Of a DNA stretch of 64,000 bases, positions 18,001 to 50,892 are shown piece by piece (position 1 is the stretch's first letter; each line of letters opens with the position of its first letter). The DNA lies in the NCBI GenBank assembly GCA_964016885.1, contig OZ024754.1, positions 18,476,001-18,540,000 of the forward strand, read 5' to 3'. The notes under the pieces are model-generated. The model did no database searches, was not told the DNA's origin, and saw nothing but the letters and a program-made list of their open reading frames with translations. This stretch comes from Eledone cirrhosa. Taxonomy: Eukaryota. The translations under genes were made by a program, and so were the position numbers.

Positions 18001-21000
18001 ACACTCCTGCTCCCAATACACACTCCTGCTCCCAATACACACACTCCTGCTCCCAATACACACTCTCCTGCTCCCAATACACACACTCCTGCTCCCAATA
18101 CACACACTCCTGCTCCCAATACACAAACTCCTGCTCCCAATACACACACTCCTGCTCCCAATACACACTCTCCTGCTCCCAATACACACACTCCTGCTCC
18201 CAATACACACTCCTGCTCCCAATACACACACTCCTGCTCCCAATACACACTCCTGCTCCCAATACACACACTTCTGCTCCCAATACACACTCTCCTGCTC
18301 CCAATACACACACTCCTGCTCCTAATACACACTCCTGCTCCCAATACACTCTCCTGCTCCCAATACACACAGTCCTGCTCCCAATACACACTCCTGCTCC
18401 CAATACACACACTCCTGCTCCCAATACACACACTCCTGCTCCTAATACACACTCCTGCTCCCAATACACACTCCTGCTCCCAATACACACTCCTGCTCCC
18501 AATACACACACTCCTGCTCCCAATACACACACTCCTGCTCCCAATACACACTCCTGCTCCCAATACACACACTCCTGCTCCCAATACACACACTCCTGCT
18601 ACCAAATACACACACTCCTGCTCCCAATACACACACTCCTGCTCCCAATACACACTCCTGCTCCCAATACACACACTCCTGCTCCCAATACACACTCCTG
18701 CTCCCAATACACACTCCTGCTCCCAATACACACTCCTGCTCCCAATACACACACTCCTGCTCCCAATACACACACTCCTGCCCCCAATACACACACTCCT
18801 GCTCCCAATACACACTCCTGCTCCCAATACACACACTACTGCTCCCAATACACACTCCTGCTCCCAATACACACACTCCTGCTCCCAATACACACTCCTG
18901 CTCCCAATACACACACTCCTGCTCCCAATACACACTCCTGCTCCCAATACACACACTCCTGCTCCCAATACACACTCCTGCTCCCAATACACACACTCCT
19001 GCTCCCAATACACACTCCTGCTCCCAATACACACACTCCTGCTCCCAATAATCACTCCTGCTCCCAATACACACACTCCTGCTCCCAATACACACACTCC
19101 TGCTCCCAATACACACTCCTGCTCCCAATACACACACTCCTGCTCCCAATACACACTCTCCTGCTCCCAATACACAAACTCCTGCTCCCAATACACACTC
19201 CTGCTCCCAATACACACTCTCCTGCTCCCAATACACACACTCCTGCTCCCAATACACACTCCTGCTCCCAATACACACACTCCTGCTCCCAATACACACT
19301 CTCCTGCTCCCAATACACACACTCCTGCTCCCAATACACACACTCCTGCTCCCAATACACAAACTCCTGCTCCCAATACACACACTCCTGCTCCCAATAC
19401 ACACACTCCTGCTCCCAATACACACTCCTGCTCCCAATACACACTCCTGCTCCCAATACACACACTCCTGCTCCCAATACACACACTCCTGCTCCCAATA
19501 CACACTCCTGCTCCCAATACACACTCCTGCTCCCAATACACACACTCCTGCTCCCAATACACACTCCTGCTCCCAATACACACACTCCTGCTCCCAATAC
19601 ACACTCTCCTGCTCCCAATACACACACTCCTGCTCCCAATACACACACTCCTGCTCCCAATACACACACTCCTGCTCCCAATACACACTCCTGCTCCCAA
19701 TACACACACTCCTGCTCCCAATACACACTCTCCTGCTCCCAATACACACACTCCTGCTCCCAATACACACTCCTGCTCCCAATACACACACTCCTGCTCC
19801 CAATACACACTCTCCTGCTCCCAATACACACACTCCTGCTCCCAATACACACACTCCTGCTCCCAATACACAAACTCCTGCTCCCAATACACACACTCCT
19901 GCTCCCAATACACACTCCTGCTCCCAATACACACACTCCTGCTCCCAATACACACTCTCCTGCTCCCAATACACACACTCCTGCTCCCAATACACACACT
20001 CCTGCTCCCAATACACACACTCCTGCTCCCAATACACACTCCTGCTCCCAATACACACACTCCTGCTCCCAATACACACTCTCCTGCTCCCAATACACAC
20101 ACTCCTGCTCCCAATACACACACTCCTGCTCCCAATACACACTCCTGCTCCCAATACACACCTCCTGCTCCCAATACACACACTCCTGCTCCCAATACAC
20201 ACTCTCCTGCTCCCAATACACACACTCCTGCTCCCAATACACACACTCCTGCTCCCAATACACAAACTCCTGCTCCCAATACACACACTCCTGCTCCCAA
20301 TACACACTCCTGCTCCCAATACACACACTCCTGCTCCCAATACACACTCTCCTGCTCCCAATACACACACTCCTGCTCCCAATACACACACTCCTGCTCC
20401 CAATACACACACTCCTGCTCCCAATACACACACTCCTGCTCCCAATACACACACTCCTGCTCCCAATACACACACTCCTGCTCCCAATACACACTCCTGC
20501 TCCCAATACACACACTCCTGCTCCCAATACACACTCCTGCTCCCAATACACACACTTCTGCTCCCAATACACACTCTCCTGCTCCCAATACACACACTCC
20601 TGCTCCCAATACACACACTCCTGCTCCCAATACACACTCCTGCTCCCAATACACACTCCTGCTCCCAATACACACTCATCTGCACCCAATACACACACTC
20701 CTGCTCCCAATACACACACTCCTGCTCCCAATACACACACTCCTGCTCCCAATACACAAACTCCTGCTCCCAATACACACTCTCCTGCTCCCAATACACA
20801 CACTCCTGCTCCCAATACACACACTCCTGCTCCCAATACACAAACTCCTGCTCCCAATACACACACTCCTGCTCCCAATACACACTCTCCTGCTCCCAAT
20901 ACACACACTCCTGCTCCCAATACACACTCCTGCTCCCAATACACACACTCCTGCTCCCAATACACACTCCTGCTCCCAATACACACTCCTGCTCCCAATA

Positions 21001-24000
21001 CACACTCATCTTCTCCCAATACACACACTCCTGCTCCTAATACACACTCCTGCTCCCAATACACTCTCCTGCTCCCAATACACACAGTCCTGCTCCCAAT
21101 ACACACTCCTGCTCCCAATACACACACTCCTGCTCCCAATACACACACTCCTGCTCCTAATACACACTCCTGCTCCCAATACACACTCCTGCTCCCAATA
21201 CACACTCCTGCTCCCAATACACACACTCCTGCTCCCAATACACACACTCCTGCTCCCAATACACACTCCTGCTCCCAATACACACACTCCTGCTCCCAAT
21301 ACACACACTCCTGCTACCAAATACACACACTCCTGCTCCCAATACACACACTCCTGCTCCCAATACACACTCCTGCTCCCAATACACACACTCCTGCTCC
21401 CAATACACACTCCTGCTCCCAATACACACTCCTGCTCCCAATACACACTCCTGCTCCCAATACACACACTCCTGCTCCCAATACACACACTCCTGCTCCC
21501 AATACACACACTCCTGCTCCCAATACACACTCCTGCTCCCAATACACACACTCCTGCTCCCAATACACACTCCTGCTCCCAATACACACTCCTGCTCCCA
21601 ATACACACACTCCTGCTCCCAATACACACACTCCTGCTCCCAATACACACTCCTGCTCCCAATACACACACTCCTGCTCCCAATACACACTCCTGCTCCC
21701 AATACACACACTCCTGCTCCCAATACACACTCCTGCTCCCAATACACACACTCCTGCTCCCAATACACACTCCTGCTCCCAATACACACACTCCTGCTCC
21801 CAATAATCACTCCTGCTCCCAATACACACACTCCTGCTCCCAATACACACACTCCTGCTCCCAATACACACTCCTGCTCCCAATACACACACTCCTGCTC
21901 CCAATACACACTCTCCTGCTCCCAATACACAAACTCCTGCTCCCAATACACACTCCTGCTCCCAATACACACTCTCCTGCTCCCAATACACACACTCCTG
22001 CTCCCAATACACACTCCTGCTCCCAATACACACACTCCTGCTCCCAATACACACTCTCCTGCTCCCAATACACACACTCCTGCTCCCAATACACACACTC
22101 CTGCTCCCAATACACAAACTCCTGCTCCCAATACACACACTCCTGCTCCCAATACACACACTCCTGCTCCCAATACACACTCCTGCTCCCAATACACACT
22201 CTCCTGCTCCCAATACACACACTCCTGCTCCCAATACACACTCCTGCTCCCAATACACACACTCCTGCTCCCAATACACACTCTCCTGCTCCCAATACAC
22301 ACACTCCTGCTCCCAATACACACACTCCTGCTCCCAATACACACACTCCTGCTCCCAATACACACTCCTGCTCCCAATACACACACTCCTGCTCCCAATA
22401 CACACTCTCCTGCTCCCAATACACACACTCCTGCTCCCAATACACACTCCTGCTCCCAATACACACACTCCTGCTCCCAATACACACTCTCCTGCTCCCA
22501 ATACACACTCCTGCTCCCAATACACACACTCCTGCTCCCAATACACACTCTCCTGCTCCCAATACACACACTCCTGCTCCCAATACACACTCTCCTGCTC
22601 CCAATACACACACTCCTGCTCCCAATACACACACTCCTGCTCCCAATACACACTCTCCTGCTCCCAATACACACACTCCTGCTCCCAATACACACTCTCC
22701 TGCTCCCAATACACACACTCCTGCTCCCAATACACACTCCTGCTCCCAATACACACACTCCTGCTCCCAATACACACTCTCCTGCTCCCAATACACACAC
22801 TCCTGCTCCCAATACACACACTCCTGCTCCCAATACACACACTCCTGCTCCCAATACACACTCCTGCTCCCAATACACACACTCCTGCTCCCAATACACA
22901 CTCTCCTGCTCCCAATACACACACTCCTGCTCCCAATACACACTCCTGCTCCCAATACACACACTCCTGCTCCCAATACACACTCTCCTGCTCCCAATAC
23001 ACACTCCTGCTCCCAATACACACACTCCTGCTCCCAATACACACTCTCCTGCTCCCAATACACACACTCCTGCTCCCAATACACACTCTCCTGCTCCCAA
23101 TACACACACTCCTGCTCCCAATACACACACTCCTGCTCCCAATACACACTCTCCTGCTCCCAATACACACTCCTGCTCCCAATACACACACTCCTGCTCC
23201 CAATACACACTCTCCTGCTCCCAATACACACACTCCTGCTCCCAATACACACTCTCCTGCTCCCAATACACACACTCCTGCTCCCAATACACACACTCCT
23301 GCTCCCAATACACACTCCTGCTCCCAATACACACACTCTTGCTCCCAATACACACTCTCCTGCTCCCAATACACACTCCTGCTCCCAATACACACACTCC
23401 TGCTCCCAATACACAAACTCCTGCTCCCAATACACACACTCCTGCTCCCAATACACACACTCCTGCTCCCAATACACACTCCTGCTCCCAATACACACTC
23501 TCCTGCTCCCAATACACACACTCCTGCTCCCAATACACACTCCTGCTCCCAATACACACACTCCTGCTCCCAATACACACTCTCCTGCTCCCAATACACA
23601 CACTCCTGCTCCCAATACACACACTCCTGCTCCCAATACACAAACTCCTGCTCCCAATACACACACTCCTGCTCCCAATACACACTCCTGCTCCCAATAC
23701 ACACACTCCTGCTCCCAATACACACTCTCCTGCTCCCAATACACACACTCCTGCTCCCAATACACACACTCCTGCTCCCAATACACAAACTCCTGCTCCC
23801 AATACACACACTCCTGCTCCCAATACACACTCTCCTGCTCCCAATACACACACTCCTGCTCCCAATACACACTCCTGCTCCCAATACACACACTCCTGCT
23901 CCCAATACACACTCCTGCTCCCAATACACACACTCCTGCTCCCAATACACACTCTCCTGCTCCCAATACACACACTCCTGCTCCCAATACACACACTCCT

Positions 24001-27000
24001 GCTCCCAATACACAAACTCCTGCTCCCAATACACACACTCCTGCTCCCAATACACACTCCTGCTCCCAATACACACACTCCTGCTCCCAATACACACTCT
24101 CCTGCTCCCAATACACACACTCCTGCTCCCAATACACACTCCTGCTCCCAATACACACACTCCTGCTCCCAATACACACTCCTGCTCCCAATACACACAC
24201 TCCTGCTCCCAATACACACACTCCTGCTCCCAATACACACTCCTGCTCACAATACACACTCCTGCTCCCAATACACACACCCCTGCTCCCAATACACACT
24301 CCTGCTCCCAATACACACACTCCTGCTCCCAATACACACACTCCTGCTCCCAATACACACTCTCCTGCTCCCAATACACACACTCCTGCTCCCAATACAC
24401 ACACTCCTGCTCCCAATACACAAACTCCTGCTCCCAATACACACACTCCTGCTCCCAATACACAATCCTGCTCCCAATACACACACTCCTGCTCCCAATA
24501 CACACTCCTGCTCCCAATACACACACTCCTGCTCCCAATACACACACTCCTGCTCCCAATACACAAACTCCTGCTCCCAATACACACACTCCTGCTCCCA
24601 ATACACACTCTCCTGCTCCCAATACACACACTCCTGCTCCCAATACACACTCCTGCTCACAATACACACTCCTGCTCCCAATACACACACCCCTGCTCCC
24701 AATACACACTCCTGCTCCCAATACACACACTCCTGTTCCCAATACACACTCCTGCTCCCAATACACACACTCCAGCTCCCAATACACACTCCTGCTCCCA
24801 ATACACACACTCCTGCTCCCAATACACACTCCTGCTCCCAATACACACACTCCTGCTCCCAATACACACTCCTGCTCCCAATACACACACTCCTGCTCCC
24901 AATACACACTCCTGCTCCCAATACACACACTCCTGCTCCCAATACACACACTCCTGCTCCCAATACACACTCCTGCTCCCAATACACACACTCCTGCTCC
25001 CAATACACACTCCTGCTCCCAATACACACTCTCCTGCTCCCAATACACACACTCCTGCTCCCAATACACACTCCTGCTCCCAATACACACACTCCTGCTC
25101 CCAATACACACTCCTGCTCCCAATACACACTCCTGCTCCCAATACACACTCCTGCTCCCAATACACACTCCTGCTCCCAATAAACACTCCTGCTCCCAAT
25201 ACACACTCCTGCTCCCAATACACACACTCCTGCTCCCAATACACGCACTCCTGCTCCCAATACACACTCCTGCTCCCAATACACACACTCCTGCTCCCAA
25301 TACACACTCCTGCTTCCAATACACACACTCCTGCTCCCAATACACACTCCTGCTCCCAATACACACACTCCTGCTCCCAATACACACACTCCTGCTCCCA
25401 ATACACACACTCCTGCTCCCAATACACACTCCTGCTCCCAATACACACACTCCTGCTCCCAAAACACACACTCCTGCTCCCAATACACACTCCTGCTCCC
25501 AATACACACACTCCTGCTCCCAATACACACACTCCTGCTCCCAATACACACTCCTGCTCCCAATACACACACTCCTGCTCCCAATACACACTCCTGCTTC
25601 CAATACACACACTCCTGCTCCCAATACACACACTCCTGCTCCCAATACACACTCCTGCTCCCAATACACACACTCCTGCTCCCAATACACACTCCTGCTC
25701 CCAATACACACACTCCTGCTCCCAATACACACACTCCTGCTCCAAATACACACTCCTGCTCCCAATACACACACTCCTGCTCCCAATACACACTCCTGCT
25801 CCCAATAAACACTCCTGCTCCCAATAAACACTCCTGCTCCCAATACACACACTCCTGCTCCCAATACACACTCCTGCTCCCAATACACACTCCTGCTCCC
25901 AATAAACACTCCTGCTCCCAATACACACTCCTGCTCCCAATACACACACTCCTGCTCCCAATACACACCCCTGCTCCCAATACACACTCCTGCTCCCAAT
26001 ACACACACTCCTGCTCCCAATACACACACTCCTGCTCCCAATACACACACTCCTGCTCCCAATACACACTCCTGCTGCCAATACACACTCCTGCTCCCAA
26101 TAAACACACTCCTGCTCCCAATACACACACTCCTGCTCCCAATACACACTCCTGCTCCCAATACACACACTCCTGCTCCTAATACACACTCCTGCTCCCA
26201 ATACACACTCCTGCTCCCAATACACACACTCCTGCTCCCAATACACACTCCTGCTCCCAATACACACACTCCTGCTCCCAATACACACACTCCTGCTCCC
26301 AATACACACTCCTGCTCCCAATACACACACTCCTGCTCCCAATACACACTCCTGCTCCCAATACACACTCCTGCTCCCAATACACACTCCTGCTCCCAAT
26401 ACACACTCCTGCTCCCAATACACACTCCTGCTCCCAATACACACTCCTGCTCCCAATACACACACTCCTGCTCCCAATACACACTCCTGCTCCCAATACA
26501 CACTCCTGCTCCCAATACACACACTCCTGCTCCCAATACACACCCCTGCTCCCAATACACACTCCTGCTCCCAATACACACACTCCTGCTCCCAATACAC
26601 ACACTCCTGCTCCCAATACACACACTCCTGCTCCCAATACACACTCCTGCTGCCAATACACACTCCTGCTCCCAATACACACACTCCTGCTCCCAATACA
26701 CACTCCTGCTCCCAATACACACACTCCTGCTCCCAATACACACTCCTGCTCCTAATACACACTCCTGCTCCCAATACACACTCCTGCTCCCAATACACAC
26801 ACTCCTGCTCCCAATACACACTCCTGCTCCCAATACACACACTCCTGCTCCCAATACACACACTCCTGCTCCCAATACACACTCCTGCTCCCAATACACA
26901 CACTCCTGCTCCCAATACACACTCCTGCTCCCAATACACACTCCTGCTCCCAATACACACTCCTGCTCCCAATACACACTCCTGCTCCCAATACACACTC

Positions 27001-28572
27001 CTGCTCCCAATACACACTCCTGCTCCCAATACACACACTCCTGCTCCCAATACACACTCCTGCTCCCAATACACACTCCTGCTCCCAATACACACACTCC
27101 TGCTCCCAATACACACTCCTGCTCCCAATACACACTCCTGCTCCCAATACACACACTCCTGCTCCCAATACACACACTCCTGCTCCCAATACACACTCCT
27201 GCTCCCAATACACACACTCCTGCTCCCAATACACACTCCTGCTCCCAATACACACTCCCGCTCCCAATACATACTCCTGCTCCCAATACACACTCCCGCT
27301 CCCAATACATACTCCTGCTCCCAATACACACTCCTGCTCCCAATACACACACTCCTGCTCCCAATACACACTCCTGCTCCCAATACACACTCCTGCTCCC
27401 AATACACACACTCCTGCTCCCAATACACTCTCCTGCTCCCAATACACACACTCCTGCTCCCAATACACACACTCCTGCTCCCAATACACACACTCCTGCT
27501 CCCAATACACACACTCCTGCTCCCAATACACACTGCAGCTCCCAATACACACACTCCTGCTCCCAATACACACTCCTGCTCCCAATACACACTCATGTGC
27601 CCCCAATACACACACTCATGTGCCCCCAATACACACACTCCTGCTCCCAATACACACTCATGTGCCCCCAATACACACACTCCTGCTCCCAATACACACT
27701 CCTGCTCCCAATACACACTCATGTGCCCCCAATACACACACTCCTGCTCCCAATACACACTCCAGCTCCCAATACACACACTCCTGCTCCCAATACACAC
27801 ACTCCTGCTCCCAATACACACTCCTGCTCCCAATACACACTCATGTGCCCCCAATACACACACTCCTGCTCCCAATACACACACTCCTGCTCCCAATACA
27901 CACTCATCTGCTCCCAATACACACTCCTGCTCCCAATACACACACTCCTGCTCCCAATACACACACTTCTGCTCCCAATACACACACTCCTGCTCCCAAT
28001 ACACACTCCTGCTCCCAATACACACTCCGGCTCCCAATACACACACTCCTGCTCCCAATACACACACTCCTGCTCCCAATACACACTCCTGCTCCCAATA
28101 CACACTCATGTGCCCCCAATACACACACTCCTGCTCCCAATACACACACTCCTGCTCCCAATACACACTCATCTGCTCCCAATACACACTCATCTGCTCC
28201 CAATACACACACTCCTGCTCCCAATACACACACTTCTGCTCCCAATACACACACTCCTGCTCCCAATACACACTCCTGCTCCCAATACACACTCCAGCTC
28301 CCAATACACACACTCCTGCTCCCAATACACACACTCCTGCTCCCAATACACACTCCTGCTCCCAATACACACTCATGTGCCCCCAATACACACACTCCTG
28401 CTCCCAATACACACTCCTGCTCCCAATACACACTCCTGCTCCCAATACACACACTCCTGCTCCCAATACACACTCCTGCTCCCAATACACACTCCTGCTC
28501 CCAATACACACACTCCTGCTCCCAATACACACACTCCTGCTCCCAATACACACTCCTGCTCCCAATACACAA
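1..28572. repeat. Large tandem satellite/minisatellite, 19-bp (GCTCCCAATACACACTCCT) and 21-bp (one extra CA) units, roughly 1,400 units; runs off the window start
   Basis: Directly visible uninterrupted array with sparse variants (ctact, catac, caaac, cacaat, caataatc, catct, catgtgccc). Ends at ...cccaatacac|aagcag. Confidence 0.99.
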
Positions 28573-29039
28573 GCAGTTTTTTATGATAGTATCTGGGGTT
28601 TTTGGAAAATAACAAAGATTCTTACGTAATATTATGATGGAAGGTTTTAATATAAATATGAAAACTTTAAAACAAGCAGTTTTGTATGATATAACCAGGG
28701 CCAGTATATAATCAGGTCGGTTTGGTATCAAAAGGTCTGAATAACATTTCTAATGAAAACAAGGGAGACAATTATAAAACTGTTTAGATAATTTAGTTCT
28801 TTAAAGAGTAAGTCAATGTGTGAATAAGTAGGAATAGAAAAGAGTGGACTTCCATCGGTTGCAACGATGAGTGTTACAGTTATTCAATCAACGGAATGAC
28901 ATGCTTTTGAAATTAATGAGCTATTGTAGATACACAAGATGACGAGCAGACTAACAAAGAATGTAGACTTTGTATGGAGAAAATAAACAGGAATGGTAAA
29001 CACTGAGATAAAACAAGAAATAGACTCTACCTCAAATAC

Positions 29040-29620
29040 TTTTGGAAGCCGTTGACAGATTCTGTTACCTGGGAGATCTAATCAGCATAATAGCCAGAGT
29101 GAGAACTGGTTGGAAGAAATTCTGAGAGTTGTTACCTCTGCTGACAACAAAGGCTTTCTCTCTCCGAGTAAAGGGCAGAGTTTGTGTTCTTGTCAATGAG
29201 TTCATTGCTGCATGCTTGTTAGAAGGTTTGTAAAGATTAGAAGTAAATGAAATGAGTGCGCTCAGATGGATGTGTAATGTTAGTGTGCATGAATGAAAAA
29301 GTACCAATAAACTAAGAGAGAAACTATGCATAAGAGGAATAAAATGTAGTGTACAAGAAAAAAGATTGCATTGGTTTGAGCATGTGATGTATATAGTGGA
29401 TGACAGCTATATAAAGTGCAGGGCTCTCAAAATAGTTGGAACCTGTAGAAGACTTTCGAAAATCTGGGATGAAGTAGTAAAAACTTTGTAAAGTGGTTGT
29501 CATTAGGAAGGACATTTATCCATAGAAACCATGCCAAATATGGAATGTATCATCTCGGATAACAATGACCAGGTCTAACCCATGCTAGCGTGAAAAAATG
29601 GATGCAAAATGGTGATAATA
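29040..29620 (+). mobile_element. Old, decayed RTE LINE 3' fragment
   Basis: Remnants matching [22 protein letters not shown] and RWMCNV of the other RTE copies. 3' tail motif tctaacccatgctagcgtg at ~29575. Confidence 0.75.
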
Positions 29621-29862
29621 CACACACACATAAACCATACATACACACACATAAACCATACATACATACACATAAACACCCACACCAGACACTGACATAT
29701 ATACAGACAGATGTACACACACATATATACACAGACAGATGTACACACACACACATATACACACATCCAGGCACATAAACTCCCACATACATATAGAAAC
29801 ACCCACATATATATATACACACAGACACACACACACCCACATATATTCATACACACACACAC
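29620..29862. repeat. Compound (CA)/(TACA) microsatellite
   Basis: Directly visible low-complexity CA/TA repeats. Confidence 0.9.
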
Positions 29863-29884
29863 AAGAAAGAAAAGCAACCCTTAC

Positions 29885-30011
29885 CGGAAGTAGCGAAGGA
29901 TTCTGAGATAATCCTCCTGTATTCTATCTTTTGGATTATCAACAAATTTCACAATTTTGTTCTTCAGATGTTCTTTACCATTGACATAATCATATAAATT
30001 ACCATTAAAAT
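29885..30011 (-). CDS. TRNT1: TRNT1-like (class II tRNA nucleotidyltransferase) internal exon, 127 nt: (D)[41 protein letters not shown](R)
   Basis: Minus strand reads ctctag|ATTTT...TTCCG|gtaag, with a CTAAC branch-like site ~30 nt upstream. Phase matches the preceding exon. Contains motif C (DYxxG) and motif D (EDYLR). Not in the ORF track. Confidence 0.92.
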
Positions 30012-30142
30012 CTAGAGAATTAAATATATTAATATATTAGGTTAGTTAACAGAATCAAAAATATTAATATTTTAGGTTGGTGAATAGAATTAAATATATT
30101 AATAGATTAGGATAGTTACCACAATAAAATATATTAATATAT
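30012..30142. repeat. AT-rich ~33-bp degenerate tandem repeat (about 4 copies) abutting the splice acceptor
   Basis: Repeated agaattaaatatattaatatattaggttagttaac-like units. Confidence 0.7.
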
Positions 30143-30197
30143 GTACTTGGGAATAAACAAAGCTTTCTAGTTAAGTTGGTACAACTTGTAAAATAAT

Positions 30198-30385
30198 TGT
30201 TTCTATCTTAGGGTCAAGGCCAGCAATTATCCAGTGCATTACTGGTACTTTATTTTATCGACCCCGTAAGGATGAAAGGCAAAGTTAACCTTGGCGGGAT
30301 TTGAACTCAGAAAGGCAAGGGCCGTAACTCTATACGTCAAAGCATGGCGTCCGACCCTCTACCAATACTGCCAATCCACCGCCCT
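30198..30385 (-). mobile_element. tRNA-derived SINE inserted at the Rab7 retrocopy start codon
   Basis: A-box/B-box head (TGGCAGTATTGG...GTTCAAATCCC) and core gcctttcatccttacggggtcgataaaataaagtaccag. Target-site duplication taaaataat at 30189-30197 and 30386-30394. Confidence 0.9.
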
Positions 30386-30392
30386 TAAAATA

Positions 30393-30968
30393 ATGGCATC
30401 CAGAAAGAAGGTGCTGCTTAAAGTAATTATTCTTGGAGACAGTGGTGTTGGAAAGACTTTTTTGATGAATCAGTATGTGAATAAAAAATTCAGCAACCAA
30501 TACAAAGCTACAATAGGAGCTAATTTCCAAACAAAAGAGGTAATGGTTGTCACAATGCAGATATGGGACACAGCTGGTCAAGAACATTTTCAAAGTCTTG
30601 GGGTTGTTTCTATCGAGGAGCAGACTGCTGTGTGCTGGTATTTGATGTAACAGCACAAGTTACTTTCAAATCTTTGGACAGTTGGAGGGATGAATTCCTA
30701 ATACAAGCTAACTCTCGAGAACCTTTTCTTGTCATAGGAAGCAAAATTGATTTAGAGAACAGAGTGATTTCTGCCAAAAGAACACAAAGAAGAGATACCT
30801 TATTTTGAAACTAGTGCAAAAGAAGCAATAAATGTTGAACAAGCTTTCCAAACAGTGGCAAAGAATGCTTTAGCCCAAGAAACAGAAGTGGAGCTGTATA
30901 ATGAATTTTCAGATCAGATTAAGATTATAAGTGACCAGAACAAACCTCCAGAAGGATGTAGCTGTTAA
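30393..30968 (+). pseudogene. RAB7: Rab7 processed pseudogene (intronless retrocopy), antisense inside a TRNT1-like intron
   Basis: [22 protein letters not shown]...WDTAGQE...FYRGADCC...YFETSAK...EGCSC* with a CXC prenylation end and no introns. 1-nt frameshift at ~30607, a second frameshifting deletion at ~30790, two in-frame ~12-nt deletions (DDRL, PENF), and NKID>SKID. Confidence 0.95.
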
Positions 30969-31181
30969 AGAACCTTATAATAAAAAAGGGCTTGGTTTGA
31001 TGTGCCTTGTGTTTGACCCATTCTGACCATTCTGAGGGACAGCTGCTGTTGCTGACCTCGCACCCACACACACACATACATACATACATACATACATACA
31101 CACACTTTTAGTGTGTAAAAATATGTTATAAATGTCCATCTGTGTGAATGTGTGTATATATTATATATACATACAACCTGC

Positions 31182-31228
<47 letters not shown>

Positions 31229-31374
31229 CTATTAGGTGATCGCCATGTTAAGCAATGCTGAGATGTGAGTTTTAAAAAAAAAACGAGCATTAGTGTTGAA
31301 GGCAGAACGAAGATAAATGTTAAATTTTCAATTTCCTGATTTCTTTGGATGTTCATATATATATATATATATGT

Positions 31375-31651
31375 ATCATCATCATCATCATCATCATCGT
31401 TTAACGTCCATATTCCACGCTTGCATGGGTTTAGACGGGAGTTTTCCCACTTGAAGCAAGAGTGGTTGTCTTGCTCGCATAGGACTGTCTGGCGGGTTTT
31501 CTACGGCTGGATGCCCTTCCTAACACCAACCACATTTACAGTGTGGAACTGGGAGGTTTTTACCGTGTTACCTACACAGCCACATTACAGCATGGACTGT
31601 GTGTTTTTTTTGTCGTGACACCTACACGACCTCATTTGTTTCGGGCTGGAT
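31375..31651 (-). mobile_element. RTE family B 3' UTR-only copy with (ATG)n tail
   Basis: Nearly identical to the 3' end of the adjacent copy at 31662 and those at 56162 and 57560. Embedded in (TA)n. Confidence 0.85.
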
Positions 31652-31661
31652 GTTATATATA

Positions 31662-32712
31662 TCATCATCATCATCATCATCAACGTTTAACGTCCGTGTT
31701 CCACGCTTGCATGGGTTTGGACGGGGGTAGTCCCACTTGAGGCAAGAGTGATTGTCTTGCTCGCATAGGACTGTCTGGCAGGTTTTCTACAGTTGGATGC
31801 CCTTCCTAACACCAACCACATTTACAGTGTGGGTCTGGGAGGTTTTTACCGTGTTGCCTACACGGCCACATTACAGCGTGGACTGTGTGTTTTTTTGTCG
31901 TGACACCTACACGATCTCATTTGTTTCGGCCTGGATGGCGCGGCACCAACATAACTTTACATAGGACGGGGTGGTGTGGATGGGTGGGGGTGGTGGCGGG
32001 ACGGGGTGTATTTTGTTAGAGATGCCTACTGGCAAGGCGGGTTTTCTCTGTTACTGAGTACCGCCAAAGGCCTCGGTCCAGTGACATTGTCTTGGAGAGG
32101 TGTAAGTGTGTGAGGTCGGAGTTTATCAGCTCGTCCCAGGTTTTTCTAGGTCTGCCTATTCCGTGGCTACCGTCTATCTTTATTGCCCTGCACTTTGTTA
32201 TACAGCTATCGACTTTCATGCGCATCACGTGTCCATACCAACGTAGCCTTCTCTCGAGTAAACAACATCTGATCCCTCTTATCTCTAATTTTTTTCTTAG
32301 TTCGTTTATGCTTTGCCGTTCACGTATATTACTGTTACACATCCAGCGGAGCATGCAAGCTTCGTTCCTCTCTAGTCTGCGTATATCCTCTGCACACAAT
32401 GCCCAGGTCTCACTGCCATGCAACATTGCTGTTCGTATGCAGGCATCGTACAACCTGCCTTTCATTTTTAGGGAGAACCCTTTAGCAGCTAATAGTGGTA
32501 TAAGCTCTCTGAACTTTTTCCAACCAGTTCTGACTCTAGCTACAGTACTTTCAGAGCACCCTCCCCCACTGCTGATTTTATCGCCCAGGTAACGGAAGCT
32601 GTCCACTATTTCTATAGAACCCTCTGCGCAATTGAAAGAGCTAGTATTTTGTGGGCACTTGCTGCTACTTATTGCACCAGAACACCGGCCACATGTAAAA
32701 TCTATGTTCTTA
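31662..32712 (-). mobile_element. 5'-truncated RTE LINE family B (RT C-terminus plus 3' UTR)
   Basis: ORF 32016-32768: DSFRYLGD...MLHGSETW...[10 protein letters not shown]...GRPRKTW. (ATG)n tail; truncated at (TA)n. Confidence 0.92.
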
Positions 32713-32739
32713 GATATATATATATATATATATATATAT

Positions 32740-33160
32740 AAATGGAATAGAATGAAACAAAATTTCATTTCTCACTCTTAGTATGGCACTTACTTAAATT
32801 TAAGTATGTATGTATGTATACGTACATACATATATATATATATACAGACGTACAGTAGTATGTATATATATACATACATGCACACATATATATATATGCA
32901 CGTATCGGTTTACCGAACATTTATTATGATGCTCGGTTTGTTTGTTTGTAAATAAACACAGCCCAAATTACGCCGTACAGTGTTTAGGCAACCACGTCAC
33001 CTTTTTTTGTTCAACACTGACACAGGAACGATGTACTAGTTTCAAGATTATTAGCTATCGTCAGCATCGTATACCTTCCTGCCAGATGGTTGAATGATAC
33101 GTGCATATATATATGTGTGCATGTATATATATATATACATACTACTGTACGTCTGTATAC
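32740..33160. mobile_element. Non-autonomous fold-back/MITE-like element, related to 58873-59345
   Basis: Inverted repeats at ~32843-32906 and ~33096-33157. Shares aatgaaac.aaatttcatttc.cactcttagta, ttgttcaacactgaca and ctggcaggaaggtatacg blocks with 58.9-59.3 kb. Confidence 0.6.
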
Positions 33161-33199
33161 ATATATGTATACACACATACATACATTTATATATATATA

Positions 33200-33858
33200 T
33201 ATAATTGAATAAACAAGAGAGATGAATACTAATATAAACATACATGTGTTCAATTATATTGTACGGCTTGGAAAAGTTTTTTTCTTAGAGCTATTTAATT
33301 GTAAGGGACAACCCTGAGTTCTTAACTCAATATATATTTGTCGGCTCCATCATATAGAGCTAATTTTTATTGTCCTGTCAGCCAGGCTGCTATTTTTAAT
33401 GGTAGGGAATTTCGAGACAAGCTGGGTTCAAAATGACACGTGTGATAATTCATATCGTACACAATTCATTCTCTAATATTTTTAGAAGTGAAAGGATCAC
33501 TAATTTCTCAACAACTACTGAGGAGCAGGGAAACGTGAAAACTTCACTTAATAAGTCGTTGCGAAACAGTCTCCAATACTGTCTAGTTGTTATCAGGCTT
33601 TTTTGCCCAATATAGGTCTGTTATTTTTCTTAATTTTTCTTAATTTAATATTTAAAGTTAAGGATAACAAACTATATTGCTGTAGTTAGTATTTTTTCAC
33701 CCTAGCAAATTTTAGTCCTTACGATTCGAACACATGTATGTTTATATTAGTGTTCATCTCTCTTGTTTATTCAATTATATTGTACGGCTCGGAAAAGTTT
33801 TTTTCTTAGAGCTATTTAATTGTAAGGGACTACCCTGAGTTCTTAACTCAATATATAT
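33200..33858 (-). mobile_element. Probable decayed Penelope-like element remnant
   Basis: Direct repeat 33250-33338 / 33770-33858 plus inverted repeat ~33200-33251 / ~33729-33780. Minus-strand remnants SNIV and TYIGQ resemble the GIY-YIG endonuclease. Confidence 0.4.
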
Positions 33859-34249
33859 ATATATTTATGTGTATGATTATATATAGCTGTATATATGAGT
33901 GTTGATGTGTGTCTATATGTATGTATGTGTGTGCATATAAATATACGTAATATCTTATATAGGATGGCGATATTTGTGTATTTGTATATGATAAAAAGCT
34001 GAGTTAGATGATCGCCATTTCCTACCACATACTCACCCCCACCTCCACCACCTCCGGTATACATGCCTGACGCTGTATGCTAAACACTCCCTCGTGCATA
34101 TACCACCTTAAACCCAATTCTGCTCAGAGCAGACACGGGGCGGACGGAGGCTCTGTAAGCTGTAGTGTAGGCAACCTGTCTAGGAGAGCTACCACTCCGA
34201 ATAAATTGGTGCGAGGTAGAGAAGTCCCCTAAGTCCACTAAGATGACTT

Positions 34250-37015
34250 CCCTAGTGCTGGTGGCACGAATAAAAGCACCCGGTCCATGCTGAAAAATGT
34301 AGGTAATGGTAGTAGCATTCAGCTATTAAAAACCATGCCAAACTATGGGGTGGAGGGGGCCGCTGAGTCCAGTAAGACAACCCCTCTAGTGCTGGTGGCA
34401 CGAATAAAAGCACCCAGCCCATGCTGTAAAGTGGTGCTGGTGTTAGGAAGGGCATCCAACCAGTGTATTAATGCCAAAACAATTATGAGCACAACAACAA
34501 ATATATATCGCAATAACTGCGTGAACAGCAATAAAACTAACCATGTTAGGGCTGTGCACGGTAGTGGGGTGGCTAGTACGGCCATGTGTGAGAAACCCTG
34601 GACCGTCATCAAGCAATTGCACAACATGATTATAAACCATTTTTCATTGCAGAAAAAGAAGAAACAATGAAATACTCACATCTCAGGATTGCCACACTTA
34701 ATAATCTACCAATCAGGCGAGCACATAAGCCAAATTGACTTCTTGCTAGTTAGGCAGCAGGACAGATGGATGGTTCCAATACTAAGGCATACCTTGGGGA
34801 AGAATGTACTTTCCAGCATAGGTTAGTCGTTAGTGACATCTCAATAAGCAAGAGATGGAATGAGACATACAGGAAGGTGTGGAAAAGGAAGGTCTGGAAA
34901 GCTCTTCAAGATGTGTATGATGAAAAAGAAGATGAGTTAGAATCATATGACATAGATGATAACTGGAATTTCTTACGTGACAACTTACTGCAGGCTACTG
35001 AAGAAACTTGTGGCTGGAGCAGAGCTCCAACCAGACAGAGAGTGACTTGGTGGTGGAACAGCATGGTAGATAGGGCCATTAGAGACAAAAGACTAGCATG
35101 GAATGCTTGGAAAAATGGTGGGAGTAGAGAAGGATATACAGCTACTAAGAGAGAAGCTAGACGCCAGGTGTACTTAGCACGCAGCGAGGCTGAGAGTAGG
35201 AGGTTTGACAATGTTCTGCGACGGGAAGATCAGAGACATGCGGTTTTCCACATTGTAAGGCAGTGTGTCAATGCAAATCAGGATGTTGTTGGAGATAAGT
35301 GTGTCCGAAATGATACCAGTGTACTTAGTGTCACGAATGATCAGAAAAAGGAAGCCTGGAAATGTCATTATGAGAGACTGATGAATGTGGAGAAAGAATG
35401 GGAGAGAGAGAAATTACCCTCAGTAGATCCAACAGAGAGACCAGCTATTGAGATTGACGAATATAGGGTCCAAGAGGCAATTAAGGAAATGAAAAATGGT
35501 AAGGCCACTGGACCATCGGGGATAGTTGCTGAGATGCTGAAGGCATCAGGAGAAGTAGGAACTAAACTGGTCGCATGCATTGTCAATCAAGCTATATATG
35601 GCAGAGTCATACCCAAAGACTGGTGCAGCAGTATTCTCATAAATTGCTACAAAAGTAAAGGGAGATGCTCTGGAGAGGAGCAATTATAGGGGCATAAAAC
35701 AGATGGACCAGGTTATGAAAGTGCCAGAAAGAATATTAGTGCAACTGATTAGAGAAAGGGTCAAACTAGATAAGATGCAGTTTGGTTTTGTGCCTGGGAA
35801 GAGTACAACAGATGCCCCCTTCTTAGTGAGACAACTACAAGAGAGGTTCTTAGAGAAGAATAAGCCACTATACTTAGCTTTTGTTGACCTAGAGAAGACC
35901 TTTGATAGGGTACCCCGATCTGTCATCTGGTGGTCCCTAAGGAAACTAGGTATAGAGGAATGGCTTGTGAGGACTGTGCAAGCTATGTACAGGGGTGCTG
36001 TCAGTAAAGTGAGAACAGGAATGGAGTTTAGTGAGGAATTCCAGATACATCTAGGAGTACATCAAGGCCCGCTCTTGTTCATTATAGTTCTCTAAGCCAT
36101 AACAGAGGAGTTTAAGACTGGATGCCCATGGGAACTTCTCTATGCTGACGATCTGGTACTGATAGCAGAATCAGTAGAGGAGCTAGAGAATAAATTCTGG
36201 CTATGGAAACAGCAGTTGGAATCAAGAAGACTGAGAGTGAACCTTGCTAAGACTAAAGTGTTGATAAGTAGAAAAGAGGATAAAACTCTGATTCCATCAG
36301 GGAAATGGCCATGTTTGATATGTAGAAAAGGAGTTGACATAAATTCTATAAAATGTACACAATGCCGATCTTGGGTACACAAGAGATGTAGTGGGATAGC
36401 AGGCAAACTAACATGTAGGGAAAACTACATATGCAGTAGATGTACAGGGAAATTTGACAGTAGAAGTCGCATTGATAGACACATTTTTCAAATGCAGGTA
36501 GGATCTATAGAGGTGGTTGATAGCTTCCGATACTTAGGTGATCAGATTAGGGAGGATGCTGCTCCGAGGCCATAGTATCTAGAATAAGGATAGGTTGGAG
36601 GAAGTTTAGGGAACTGCTTCCTCTGCTGACAAAGAAGGGTTTCTCCCTGCGTACGAAAGGCCGGTTATATGATGCCTGTGTGAGATGTGTGATGCTGCAT
36701 GGTAGTGAGACATGGGCAGTAACTTCAGAGGATATGTCAATGTGCATGAATGACCAAGGATAGACGAGTTGAGAGAGAAACTGTGTATAAGAGGGATAGG
36801 CTGCAGTGTGCAGGAGAGAAGACTGTGATGGTATGGACATGTGATGCGCATGGAGGATGACCGCGGGGTAAGAAGTGCCAAGAAATCCCTGTAGAAGGAA
36901 GACACAGTAGAGGAAGACCACAAAAAATGTGGGCAGAGGCGGTGAGAGCGGACCTCACATCGCTGAAGCTCAAGGAGGAGATGACGAAGGACAGTGACGA
37001 ATGGAGAGATGCTGT
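34250..37015 (+). mobile_element. Decayed RTE LINE family A (5' UTR, partial endonuclease, RT, PHD finger; 3' tail missing)
   Basis: Frameshifted ORFs 34766-35689, 35703-36095 and 36216-36575: QFGFVPGKSTTDA, FVDLEKTFD, WELLYADD, C4HC3 finger, SFRYLG. Confidence 0.93.
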
Positions 37016-37336
37016 TTTAACGATAGGGGTCTCAGTGTTTTATGTTACAGCTCACACCTCTGCACGTTCAGCTGGCATCCAATGAGGTTGTATGTTATAG
37101 GAATCTTTTTTGGTGTTTTAATGATAGGGGTCCCAGTCCTATAATAAAAAGCAATGCCAAATGAAGAGTCTTTCTCAAGAATACAACACATCACCCATTC
37201 CAGGAATTGACCCCACAAGCTTATGAACATGAGTCAAACACCCTAACCACAAAGCCAAGCCAATTCACTCTTTCTCTAGTTATTCAAATATACATTAAAA
37301 AAAAAACAAGAAATAATTGTTGTCTTTATACTTTAC

Positions 37337-37466
37337 CAAGAAACATTGCATTAATTGTGAGATCTCTTTTGTTAGCATCTTGTTGCCAATAGAAACTAAA
37401 TTCTTGTGGAGAAGTCTCCTTCACAATTATGGAATCTGTTCGAAGTGTAGAAATTTCAAAGTTTTC
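37337..37466 (-). CDS. TRNT1: TRNT1-like internal exon, 130 nt: ENFEISTLRTDSIIVKETSPQEFSFYWQQDANKRDLTINAMFL
   Basis: ttcttgtag|GAAAAC...CTTG|gtaaag. Phase 0 in and phase 1 out, matching both neighbours. Aligns without gaps to ENFEITTLRID...DAERRDLTINSMFL of animal CCA-adding enzymes. Not in the ORF track. Confidence 0.92.
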
Positions 37467-37894
37467 CTACAAGAAATCAAATATCAATATATAAATGTTA
37501 TTCTTTTTTTGTATTTACTTTGCTTGAATTGTGTTACCTTTTCAGATATTTCCTTCTCATTTTTATCGACTGCTTTGCAGTCTAAGAAGTGGGTGATGTA
37601 AGCGGAACTATTTCATACCTCACAGCAACAATGTTTCATACGTGATTTCATTAAACAAACCAATCGTTTTAGATCGCGTATGAATACATTGTTGCCTCCT
37701 CCTTATAAAATCTTCTGGTTCACCAGAGAGATAACGCTCTTGGACAGCGAGATGAACCTAGGATAACTTCTACTGTAATCCTCCCATAATCCTGCTAATG
37801 AACATCAACAAAGCATATTCCAAATTTCTTGAATTGTTCTTCTACGTTATGTTTTCTATATGAGATAGTCTACTGTGTATAGAAATTTGGCCTT

Positions 37895-39717
37895 CATCAT
37901 CATCATTTTACGTCCGCTTTTCCCTGCTTGCAAGGGTGGGACGGGTCCTATTCCGCACAGCATCTCTCCACTTATCACGGTCCTTCGTCGTCATCACCGT
38001 GAGCTTCAGCGATCTGAGGACTGCTCTCATCACCTCCGCCCATGTTTTTCGTGGTCTACCTCTACTGCATCTTCCTTCAACTGGTATTTCCTGGCACTTC
38101 TTCACCCATCGGTCATCCTCCATGCGCATCACATGTCCATACCATCGCAGTCTTCTCTCCCACACACTACAACTTATCCCTCTTATACTCAGTTTCTTTC
38201 TCAACTCGTCCATGCTCGGTCGTTCATGCACATTGACATTGCAGATCCAACTGAACATGCTTGCCCCACTTCTCTCCAGCCGTCGCATATGCTCTGCAGT
38301 TGCTGCCCGTGTCTCACTATCATGCAGCATCGCGCATCTCACACAGGCATCATATAACCGGCCTTTCGTATGCAGGGAGAAACCCTTCTTTGTCAACAGA
38401 GGAAGCAGCTCCCCAAACTTCTTCCAATCTGTCCTTATTCTAGATACCATGGCCTCGGAACACCCACCTCCCATGCTAATCTGATCACCTAGGTACCGGA
38501 AGCTATCAACCACTTCTATAACACCCACCTGCATTTGAAAAATGTGTCTATCAATGCGACTTCTACTGTCTAATTTCCCTGTACATCTACTGCATACATA
38601 TTTCTCCCTACCTGTTAGTTTGCCTGCTATCCCACTACATATCCCATGCACCCAAGATCCGCACTGTGTACATTTTATAGAATTTGTGCCAGTTCCCCTT
38701 CCGCATATCGAACATGGCCATCTCCCTGACGGAATCAGAGTTTTGTCCTCTCTTCTACTTATCAACACTTTTGTCTTAGTTAGGTTCACTCTCAGTCCCC
38801 TTGCTTCCAACTGCTGTTTCCATAGCCAGAATTTATTCTCTAGCTCCTCTACTGATTCCGCTATAAGAACCAGATTGTCAGCATAGAGAAGTTCCCATGG
38901 ACAGCCAGACTTAAACTCCTCTGTTATGGCTTGGAGGACTATAATGAACAAGAGCGAGCTGAGGACCGAACCTTGATGTACTCCTACTTGTATCTGGAAT
39001 TCCTCACTAAACTCCATTCCCACCCTCACTCCACCGACAGCACCTCCGCACAAAGCCTGCACTGTACTCACAAGCCATTCCTCAACACCCAGTCTTCCCA
39101 GGGACCACCAGATGACAGATCGGGGTACCCTATCAAAGGCCCTCGCCAGGTGAACAGAAGCTAAGTATAGTGGCTTATTCTTCTCTAAGAACCTCTCTTG
39201 TAATTGTCTCACCAAGAAGAGGGCATCTGTTGTACTTTTCCCAGGCACAAAACCAAACTGCATCTCATCTAATTTGACCCTTTCTCTATTTAGTTGCACT
39301 AATATTCTCTCTGGCACTTTTATAACCTGATCCATCTGTTTTATGCCCCTATAATTGCTCCTCTCCAGAGCACCCCCCCACCCTTGTAGCAATTTATGAG
39401 AATACTGCTGCACCAGTCTTTAGGTATGGCACCGCCATATATAGCCTGATTGATGATGTGTGCAACCAATTTAGTGCCTACGTCCCCTGATGCCTTCAGC
39501 ATCCCAGCAACCATCCCCAACGGTCCAGCGGCCTTACCATTTCTCATCTCCCTAATCGCCTCTTGGACCCTATATTCGTCAATCTCAATAGCTGGTCCCT
39601 CTGTCAGATCTACTGAGGGTAATCTCTCTCCCATTCGTTCTCCACATTCATCAGTCTCTCATAATGACATTTCCAGGCCTCCTTTTTCTGATCATTTGTG
39701 ACACTAAGTACACCGGC
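37895..39717 (-). mobile_element. 5'-truncated RTE LINE family A with clustered A>G hypermutation
   Basis: ORFs 39341-39634 and 37908-39413 (RT, PHD, C-terminus) and an (ATG)n tail at 37895. Many K>R/G, R>G, E>G, Y>C changes relative to the 34.7-37.0 kb copy. Confidence 0.95.
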
Positions 39718-39917
39718 TTTCTACAATAAATTTATGTTTATAGTAAATTGAGTGTTAAAAAGGATAATTATTTATAAATGGATGTCAGAAGCCTGTCGCT
39801 GTAAGTAAAACGTATTAAATAATCATTTGACTCCTCTTTTCCCTATATGTTTATTCTCACTGATCATTTATATACACATATTCCTATACACAAAATATAG
39901 TTACAGACACACAAATA

Positions 39918-40235
39918 TAATTAATGAGTTACCTCGTCATTAAATGATGTGTTATCTGGCCAGTAATTAATTAATTAATGAGTTACCTAGTCCTTAATTA
40001 AGGTATGTGTTACCTGGCCATTAATTAATGAGTTACTTGGTCATTAATTACTTAAGGTATGTTTTATGGCCATTATCGATAAAATAAAGTACCAGTAATG
40101 CACTGGGTAATTGCTGGCCTTGTGCCTAAAGTAGAAACAATTAATTAATTAATGAGTTACCTGGTCATTAATTAATTAAGGAATGTGTTACCTGGTCATC
40201 AAGTAATTAAGTAACGTGTTACCTTGTCATTAATC
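39918..40235. repeat. Degenerate tandem repeat derived from the exon end/splice donor, interrupted by a SINE 3' fragment (40075-40140)
   Basis: About 8 copies of gttacct(g)gtcattaatta, the last of which is the real exon junction. Confidence 0.75.
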
Positions 40236-40561
40236 CTTGCAGTAATAGTTCTATGTTTTTCCCCATTTATATTAATCATCCTGATCCCTTCTTCAGTAAA
40301 CATCATCTTCATCTCATCAGGATTTGCTGTTGTAGCAAAATCAATGTCAGTAGGTTGTATCCCTATTAAAAGATCTCGTACAGCCCCACCGGTAATCCTC
40401 AGCATATGTTGGTGTTTATCGAACACTTTGATAAGTACTTCCAACTCTGGAGTAAACAGGGCGTGGAATTCAGGAGTATCTATTTTGGTTGTTACTACAC
40501 CTGTCATCTTCTCTCTTCCTTCTGTCATCTTATTGGGAGGTTGTTCTCCAGTTATGTTTTT
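40223..40561 (-). CDS. TRNT1: TRNT1-like exon with motif A: ...[29 protein letters not shown]...[12 protein letters not shown]...DIDFATT...[14 protein letters not shown]
   Basis: GGAVRD and the catalytic DxD are intact. Donor AAG|gtaac at 40222. Acceptor AG either at 40563-40562 (in frame) or 40571-40570 (then ATG 40528 would be the start). Confidence 0.93.
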
Positions 40562-40759
40562 CTACAAACCTATTAAAAAAATAGAGAAAAATAATTTTGT
40601 TGTTAAAATAAAACATGTTTTACACATATTGCAGCATTATTTGCTAAAACAGATATAACAAAACACTCTAACAATAACACAGACTTTAATTCATACGAAA
40701 TATGCAGAGAAACGCCTACAAGCCTATAATTGAAGCCTTCCCACATTTACTCTGGGTAA

Positions 40760-45800: not shown

Positions 45801-45923
45801 CAAGCCAGAATCAGTTCCTGTATGAGCAAGGCATGGTCAGCCGACCGGACACTGCCCACAACAGGACAACCCGTCTAACCCATGCTAGCGTGGAAGAATG
45901 GACGTAAAAAAGTGAGGATGATG
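42880..45923 (+). mobile_element. Near full-length decayed RTE LINE (third subfamily): APE endonuclease, RT, PHD finger, 3' tail
   Basis: ORF 42946-43503 (CVQETRW, AGDFNGHVG), QIDF, RT fragments 44339-45018 (LLYVDD), internal deletion at ~44670, tail ccgtctaacccatgctagcgtggaa...gatgat. Confidence 0.92.
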
Positions 45924-45939
45924 ATATATATATAGATAT

Positions 45940-48695: not shown

Positions 48696-48737
48696 AAAGT
48701 CAACAGTTGACGTGATTTTGTATCAGTACTGACGGTA

Positions 48738-48771
<34 letters not shown>

Positions 48772-48889
48772 TTGTATGCATGAGTGTTGATGTGTGAGTG
48801 GCGTGTGTGTTTGTATGCATGAGTGTTGGTGTGTGAGTGAGTGTGTGTGTGTGTGTGTCGTGAGTGTCAATAGGTGCTGTTTTTTTTTT

Positions 48890-50860: not shown

Positions 50861-50892
50861 ATATATATATAAATATATATATAAATAAATAT

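Follow-up and report, generated by a model that had tools for sequence, protein, structure and literature searches.

Can a spare copy of the CCA-adding enzyme in an animal become an enzyme that adds only C? The question is raised by a gene on the minus strand of a 64,000-nucleotide (nt) stretch of the Eledone cirrhosa genome (assembly GCA_964016885.1, contig OZ024754.1, positions 18,476,001 to 18,540,000; hereafter the window). The gene resembles TRNT1, the CCA-adding tRNA nucleotidyltransferase, and eukaryotes usually have a single CCA-adding gene, according to PMC4538823. The first-pass annotation, made from the letters of the window, recognised three exons of an enzyme with a rewritten flexible loop and proposed a paralog of changed specificity that is under selection for catalysis. 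We find a complete, spliced gene that is conserved among octopods and accompanied by a second TRNT1 copy. Judged from its sequence, the window gene is with a probability of roughly 0.6 a cytosolic or nuclear CC-adding (C-only) tRNA nucleotidyltransferase, kept under selection.

Three exons with a rewritten loop

The features are collected in Table 1; residue numbers follow human TRNT1 throughout. As first annotated, the three coding exons in the window have AG and GT splice ends, join in phases 0 and 1 and contain no stop. Exon 1 matches human TRNT1 in the PDB with an E value of 5.7e-29 and exon 2 with 1.2e-7. Exon 1 also matches PF01743 (E 4e-14), and the orthologous proteins P0123 and P0122 match both PF01743 and PF12627. 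The exons contain GGAVRD, DID, GEKHR, R-T-D, KRD, DYVNG, EHL, FVD and EDYLR. Motif A (D77/D79 in exon 1), the basic/acidic (B/A) pair R-x-D, motif C and the template EDYLR are thus intact, as had been claimed.

The loop stretch has 18 residues, TDSIIVKETSPQEFSFYW, and in the match to human TRNT1 in the PDB it aligns without a gap to the human stretch IDVTTDGRHAEVEFTTDW. Hence the loop has indeed been replaced at the same length: between R126 and W144 the two loops have almost nothing in common. Exon 2 carries D132V, G133K and R134E in the loop (we assigned the numbers 132-134 of the human loop D, G and R in this analysis) and R150K in motif B; it keeps E121 and R126/D128 of the B/A motif. GEKHR in exon 1 carries G109R. 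Contigs of the DNA-like sequencing run X1 span all three exons with 0 differing letters. The residue changes are therefore not assembly errors, although X1 may come from the assembled sample itself.

The gene has a start codon at window position 40528 and a second in-frame ATG at 40507. An in-frame TAG lies at 40564-40562, upstream of both, and the orthologs of the gene begin at the same place. Hence the product has no mitochondrial leader.

How unusual are the residue changes? Our comparison set consists of 197 animal TRNT1 proteins longer than 300 residues, the best hits of three protein searches with near-duplicates included. RRD, GxxHG and FVG are found in all 197 other proteins and DGR[HRK]A in 195. 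GEKHR, KRD and FVD, which the first-pass annotation had singled out, are thus real and unusual: R150, G109 and G185 are unchanged in 197/197, and the window gene has R150K, G109R and G185D. The change from EDL to EHL is present as well, but it is not diagnostic, because the canonical copy of the same genome (see below) also has H there. D175H, too, is shared with that copy and means little.

Conservation among octopods

Orthologs of the window gene are annotated in Octopus vulgaris, O. sinensis, O. bimaculoides and Argonauta hians, under the ordinary TRNT1 name in the databases. The window protein is 79.9-80.2% identical to those of the three Octopus species and 75.6% identical to that of Argonauta. 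For the second TRNT1 copy, the corresponding values are 83% and 74%. A paralog that is as conserved as a housekeeping gene presumably does something, and the proposal of a paralog under selection is supported. The frame is unbroken, the splice sites are kept and transcript contigs are present, which is not the picture of a pseudogene.

The conserved and the changed positions fall in different parts of the protein. In the comparison set 105 columns have an invariance of 95% or more, and at 82 of these all five divergent proteins retain the common residue. These include the catalytic, wedge, motif C and template residues D77, D79, H108, E121, D168, G172, R190, E193, D194 and R197. Motif E is also kept (5/5), and so are G390 and G401 of the tail in the octopod proteins. 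The fixed departures are E58M, A62T, T85N/S, G109K/R, T123S, most of the loop with D132, G133 and R134 among the lost residues, R150K, F170V, D175H/N and G185D/E. KRD is found in 5/5 divergent proteins, and the loop consensus DGRbAxV in none of six (the window protein and five ortholog records). At a 98% cut-off, 7/10 loop columns are changed in all five proteins versus 8/73 elsewhere (Fisher p 1.4e-4). The loop has also kept changing: against O. vulgaris, 6/14 window loop positions are identical versus 317/391 elsewhere (p 0.002), and 13/14 in the loop of the second copy. The Argonauta ortholog has in addition lost the B/A motif (R126Q, D128T).

In the trees, each copy forms a clade with a support of 100. 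The stem branch of the divergent clade is 0.83-1.08 changes per site long, and that of the second copy 0.52-0.58. The divergent clade is nested in a mollusc/brachiopod group (support 98). The duplication predates the split of Octopus and Argonauta. Quick trees place the divergent clade outside the second copy together with three sister proteins, P0005-P0007 (support 93-97), so that a still earlier duplication, before the split from P0005-P0007, which may themselves belong to other cephalopods, is favoured by these sequences. An octopod-only duplication is not rejected by the approximately unbiased (AU) test (p 0.062). Two protein searches and one representative search found no ortholog of the divergent gene beyond Octopus and Argonauta, which is weak as evidence of absence.

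An AlphaFold model of the O. vulgaris ortholog has a predicted local distance difference test score (pLDDT) of 93 and superposes on human TRNT1 (PDB 8cbm) with a template modelling (TM) score of 0.86 and a root-mean-square deviation of 2.3 A. The model confirms the fold and is uninformative on specificity.

The remaining exons and the splicing of the gene

In the 200 kb directly past the window there is no downstream exon. A genome search places exons 4 to 7 on the same strand as exons 1 to 3, 3.25 Mb off and on the wrong side. Together the seven GT-AG exons add up to 1266 nt and encode 421 amino acids (aa) with a single terminal stop. The exon 3 donor is at the position of the human intron after c.608, where a donor-site mutation, c.608+1G>T, has been reported (PMC7312816). 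The first-pass annotation had allowed for downstream exons that were missing or disrupted; at C14:21.76 Mb they are present, motif E included, intact and spliced.

Run X4 provides the splice joins. Its 869-nt contig omits intron 4 (CT..AC ends on the plus strand) and thus joins exons 4 and 5 across a GT-AG intron. The loose end of this contig equals the last 30 bases of window exon 3, which are absent from the second TRNT1 copy. The join of exons 5 and 6 is found in another contig. Junctions 3-4, 4-5 and 5-6, which had been named as a check, are hence seen in X4 contigs, and the gene is transcribed as one spliced unit. In the DNA-like run X1 intron 4 is retained (read through). For the 13.5-kb exon-bearing stretch of the window no exon 1-2 or 2-3 join is listed from the runs, in a search swamped by repeats. 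The joins among exons 1 to 3 are supported by the frame, by the orthologs and by the size of the X4 contig, which extends 674 nt past exon 4, compared with 604 nt in these exons.

Why are the two parts of the gene so far apart? The same CA-rich satellite, on the same strand, accompanies both and ends at a 200-N gap in each case. This suggests a local scaffolding swap on C14, which is the likely cause of the split. The satellite amounts to at least 99 kb within one intron (intron 3) of an expressed gene, and the gap ends of its two parts are 3.39 Mb apart.

Alternatively, the gene is a decaying or catalytically idle duplicate, or a real rearrangement has broken it in this genome. The position of exons 4 to 7, an intron 3 loaded with satellite and a spliced form that omits exon 6 are in line with such a history; moreover, a further gap between the two gene parts, needed for a simple contig swap, was not located. 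However, each part runs into this satellite, in one orientation, and stops at a 200-N gap, and exons 3 and 4 are linked within an X4 contig. Four species have annotated full-length orthologs, the catalytic residues are all kept and the divergence equals that of the housekeeping copy. We consider decay or breakage highly improbable.

Table 1. Features of the window gene, of the second TRNT1 copy and of the surrounding sequence. Positions are those of the window or of sequence C14 of the genome (G000).
Feature	Location	Strand	Remarks
First coding exon	window 40569-40223	minus	AG acceptor before 40569, GT donor; motif A, beta-turn/wedge GEKHR
Second coding exon (130 nt)	window 37466-37337	minus	AG/GT ends; E121, B/A motif, rewritten loop, KRD
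Third coding exon (127 nt)	window 30011-29885	minus	AG/GT ends; motif C, G185D, motif D template EDYLR
Start of intron 3	window 1..29884	minus	holds satellite at window 1-28569
Exon 4	G000:C14:21763997-21763912	minus	exons 4-7: motif E SGERI, body, tail, stop
Exon 5	G000:C14:21763291-21763184	minus	
Exon 6	G000:C14:21762318-21762206	minus	
Exon 7	G000:C14:21760022-21759627	minus	
Second TRNT1 copy	G000:C14:11029711-11031063		intronless, one unbroken 450-aa frame
19/21-bp CA-rich satellite, part one	window 1-28569; G000:C14:18453544-18504569		ends at 200-N gap 18453344-18453543
Same satellite, part two	G000:C14:21798898-21847392		beside exon 4, same strand as part one; ends at 200-N gap at 21,847,393
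Rab7-like processed pseudogene (presumed)	window 30390-30970	plus	intronless, frameshifted; within intron 2, not part of the enzyme

A second, intronless TRNT1 copy

Genome searches that used exon 1, the C-terminal half or PF01743 as the query found exactly two TRNT1/PF01743 loci in all, a lower bound in a large genome. The window gene is hence a paralog, as the first-pass annotation had supposed, and not the sole TRNT1. The second copy is intronless and carries the DGRHA loop, RRD, HG and FVG. In this copy only 5 near-invariant columns deviate from the animal consensus; all of them lie outside the loop, the template and motif E, whose ER is kept. Its sequence makes it the likely housekeeping CCA enzyme.

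The copies share 47% identity. They differ at 40 of 64 fourfold sites, and silent sites are saturated. Because window intron 3 lies at human c.608, the intron-bearing gene is the old locus and the intronless gene likely a retrocopy. With 40/64 fourfold sites different, a poly(A) remnant or a target-site duplication is unlikely to have survived.

The intronless protein begins with a 31-residue leader that contains no D or E and many R, K and L; Met32 comes next. Leader and Met32 are kept in the proteins of O. bimaculoides, O. vulgaris/sinensis and Argonauta, and Met32 stands in a strong context in all 5 octopod intronless-type proteins compared. In human TRNT1, Met1 yields the mitochondrial form and Met30 the nuclear form, as described in PMC12718117. 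About 85 bases before Met1 of the intronless copy there is a pyrimidine tract with an AG, and two upstream ATGs are out of frame (L002:1310-1414). This sequence suggests an intron in the 5' untranslated region and translational tuning of Met1 versus Met32.

If the leader is found only on the intronless copy, the two enzymes might simply serve different compartments: the intronless copy mainly the mitochondria, and the window gene, a full CCA enzyme with a co-evolved loop, the cytosol and nucleus. Dictyostelium has such a pair of paralogs, according to PMC12718117, and loop families differ between lineages (PMC2910056). A partly conserved loop would also fit, as would the B/A motif that the window gene and the Octopus proteins retain. 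However, with Met32 in all 5 intronless proteins, the intronless copy can likely supply the cytosol itself. D132, G133 and R134, changed in the window gene, are kept in 196, 197 and 197 of the 197 animal enzymes. Finally, the Argonauta ortholog lacks R126 and D128, and human DGR mutants stop at CC (PMC2910056). We hold a division by compartment with two full enzymes to be rather unlikely.

Another division of labour would be that of Schizosaccharomyces, with the window gene adding CC and the intronless copy only A. Duplication followed by such a split is established in S. pombe (PMC7014341), and the stem branch of the intronless copy is also long. Nonetheless, the mitochondrial-type leader is found only on the intronless copy, which should thus need full CCA activity there. 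Its few departures from consensus moreover spare loop, template and motif E. A CC/A division of this kind seems most improbable.

Predicted specificity and mechanism

From the residues that are changed and kept we infer the activity, localisation and role of the product. In human TRNT1, an Ala in place of the loop D, G or R leaves an enzyme that adds only CC (PMC2910056, which gives the D and G results as data not shown). For the Arg mutant the catalytic rate (kcat) of A addition falls 77-fold (PMC2910056). In cryo-electron microscopy (cryo-EM) structures of the human enzyme, R126 and R150 point away at the first addition (bioRxiv 10.64898/2026.03.02.709036). Later they bind C74 and C75, as the loop closes on D194/R197 (same source). 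Hence several of the octopod changes hit parts that work late in the cycle, and the CTP-binding and catalytic parts are intact. Loss of the first R in RRD is named among the features of CC-adders (PMC7947759). The window gene further combines an intact core with a full-length loop without the family consensus, which is how PMC7014341 defines CC-adders of the S. rosetta and S. pombe type.

We propose the following mechanism. An mRNA-derived copy of the ancestral gene would have taken over full CCA addition, in the mitochondria via Met1 and in the cytosol and nucleus via Met32. The intron-bearing parent would thereby have been freed, to change fast on the stem branch and to be conserved since. 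Its enzyme would bind a tRNA-like end and use the intact D77/D79/E121 and D194/R197 to add C74 and C75. The pocket would then fail to open to ATP, since the loop lever D132-G133-R134 has been lost and R150, the holder of C75 at the last step, is now Lys. We predict tRNA-CC as the product, or ends with a few extra C's. Most probably the enzyme would prime or repair tRNA ends that are finished by the full enzyme. Alternatively, tRNAs or tRNA-like RNAs could be parked in the CC state as unchargeable.

A tsetse fly protein with similar changes

Does any other animal have such an enzyme? Among 149 further cluster representatives, 115 have DGR in the loop, 18 are unparsable and 16 are variants; KRD occurs in 1 only, from Glossina. 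This TRNT1-like protein (XP_037883350.1; P0218, P0357-P0361) is found in several tsetse species. At 364 aa, it is short in the tail and without a leader; the loop is lost, and KRD and FVD are present. It falls within Diptera (support 98), and the AU test rejects a shared ancestry with the octopod clade (p 0.005). Octopods have changed 8 invariant sites beyond the loop, and Glossina has changes at 4 of these as well (62, 85, 150 and 185; p 0.004). These sequences suggest a repeatable functional shift and make the Glossina protein a second candidate for an animal CC-type enzyme. Alternatively, relaxed selection after the loss of A addition could hit the same sites. An atlas look-up of the Glossina protein returned only ordinary CCA clusters. 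Another TRNT1-like protein with a deviant loop, P0233, has an altered template region and lies in a 9.3-kb Logan contig.

The same sites bear on a further alternative, in which the window gene acts on another substrate or makes another product: C-tailing or mixed tailing of tRNA-like RNAs, for example transcripts of tRNA-derived short interspersed nuclear elements (SINEs), small nuclear RNAs or tRNA fragments, in place of a part in tRNA maturation. The additional fixed changes lie at primer-binding sites (G109K/R by the wedge His108, R150K, G185D/E, E58M, A62T, T85N/S), and the long stem branch was followed by conservation. The same sites are changed in the Glossina protein, which is without the tRNA-elbow-binding tail, and no A-adding partner was found in the genome. 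Against this, the octopod proteins keep motif E and G390 and G401, human tRNA-elbow contacts, and the template EDYLR, which selects CTP and ATP, is unchanged. The chemistry would in any case be C-only as in the reading we prefer, so that only the substrate differs. Another substrate is a minority possibility, in our view about as improbable as the compartment division.

Several points weigh against a CC-adding enzyme. Some concern the loop. Loop sequences vary from lineage to lineage and can change in step with the core (PMC2910056, PMC7014341), so a new octopod loop could still work. In the window gene and the three Octopus proteins the B/A motif R126/D128 is intact, and the loop parts S..IV, QE and YW are kept in all 5 orthologs. 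When Argonauta is taken for comparison, the loop-versus-rest contrast is not significant (p 0.11 and 0.10). The test of shared sites in Glossina is post hoc, having been set up after the Glossina protein was seen.

Others concern the comparison with known enzymes and the purpose of the gene. The choanoflagellate Salpingoeca rosetta CC-adder (P0254, assigned to the enzyme of PMC7014341 from its species and type rather than its accession) retains RRD, HG and FVG. R150K, G109R and G185D are hence unneeded for CC-only addition and may mean another substrate or low activity. Known CC-adders (in bacteria, S. pombe, S. rosetta and Acanthamoeba) are paired with an A-adder, and none is evident here; the one other PF01743 locus seen, again as a lower bound, has a full CCA signature by sequence. 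Next to a full enzyme, one that adds only CC seems redundant, and purpose is the weak point of our proposal. In Acanthamoeba, a C-adder beside full enzymes is read as decay (PMC7947759).

The transcript evidence adds two more. An X4 contig joins exon 5 to exon 7 (L028:3184, the exon 5 end), which skips the 113 nt of exon 6 and shifts the frame. Furthermore, the splice evidence comes from a single run, X4, whose kind is not on record; all four runs are from one study and none is listed as RNA.

A CC-adding product of the window gene nevertheless remains the reading we prefer. A broader proposal is more tentative, and we would sooner bet against it than for it. At least two animal lineages, octopods and tsetse flies, may have turned a spare CCA enzyme into a dedicated C-only enzyme without an A-adding partner. 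It would have its own job, the marking or parking of tRNAs or the C-tailing of tRNA-like RNAs. Both lineages would have made the same changes (loss of the loop, R150K, G185D, loss of the leader). In octopods it would be the original gene that changed, after a retrocopy took the essential function.

Other features of the window

The introns (window 31400-39500) and the upstream region (42800-62600) contain many fragments of long interspersed nuclear elements (LINEs), which we take to be of RTE type and Tx1/L1 type, and presumed SINE copies; these labels are our own assignment from the translations. The same holds for the name Rab7 of the pseudogene in Table 1.

Novelty and meaning

Partial CC-adders have been described from bacteria, fission yeast, a choanoflagellate and an amoeba (PMC7014341, PMC7947759). 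CC-adding enzymes are thus a known kind. New here is an animal protein of the TRNT1 family that is non-canonical in its sequence and predicted to add only CC. The nearest animal precedent would be a splice variant of human TRNT1 that reportedly adds only C's. We found no paper that links octopus or cephalopods with CCA-adding or tRNA nucleotidyltransferase, and none on four octopus accessions, in a search of a collection with few subscription papers.

A conserved, expressed CC-type paralog beside a full enzyme in an animal would point to an unrecognised layer of control over tRNA ends. The octopod pair is moreover a natural experiment on the loop-driven switch from CTP to ATP. Since the two close a-type enzymes come from one genome, loop swaps between them should be compatible. 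R150K and G185D lie outside the loop, and their parallel change in a fly lineage adds to the experiment. Finally, this is a case in which a retrocopy appears to keep the essential function and the parent diverges.

Comparison with known systems

The a-type CC-adder of S. rosetta, as described in PMC7014341, is like the octopod gene: it is a-type, has a full-length loop without DGRbAxV and keeps B/A and motifs A-E. P0254 is also off the animal consensus at A62 and T85, as is the octopod gene. However, it is the sole a-type gene of S. rosetta, is paired with an e-type A-adder and keeps RRD, HG and FVG (PMC7014341). The octopod gene, in contrast, originated in a duplication within molluscs, has no leader and is accompanied by a CCA enzyme of canonical appearance.

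In the CC/A pair of S. pombe (PMC7014341), a duplication was followed by degeneration of the loop and of B/A in one copy, as in the Argonauta ortholog. The S. pombe enzymes differ in being e-type, and their sister copy is A-only, not a seemingly full CCA enzyme as in octopods. Ntr3 of Acanthamoeba castellanii is a C-adder beside full CCA enzymes, with the loop and motif B changed, like the octopod gene (PMC7947759). Its loop is deleted, its template altered, an A-adder (Ntr4) is present and it is read as decaying (PMC7947759). In the octopod gene, unlike in Ntr3, the loop has its full length, EDYLR is unaltered and the sequence is conserved.

Human TRNT1 (PDB 4x4w, 1ou5, 8cbm) shares with the octopod gene the fold (TM 0.81-0.86), the catalytic carboxylates, His108, the template and the c.608 intron. 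It is one gene that serves both compartments through Met1 and Met30 (PMC12718117) and has DGRHA, G109, R150 and G185; in octopods these traits are found in the intronless copy. The pair in Dictyostelium discoideum (PMC12718117) consists of two paralogs, only one of which carries a mitochondrial leader, as in octopods. The Dictyostelium enzymes are not of the animal a-type, by the grouping of Amoebozoa in PMC7014341.

The Glossina protein, named 'CCA tRNA nucleotidyltransferase 1-like', resembles the octopod gene in its lost loop, KRD, FVD, the changes at A62 and T85 and the missing leader. It differs in its origin within Diptera, a loop that is 4 residues shorter, the loss of the B/A Asp, the retention of G109 and a tail cut short (364 aa).

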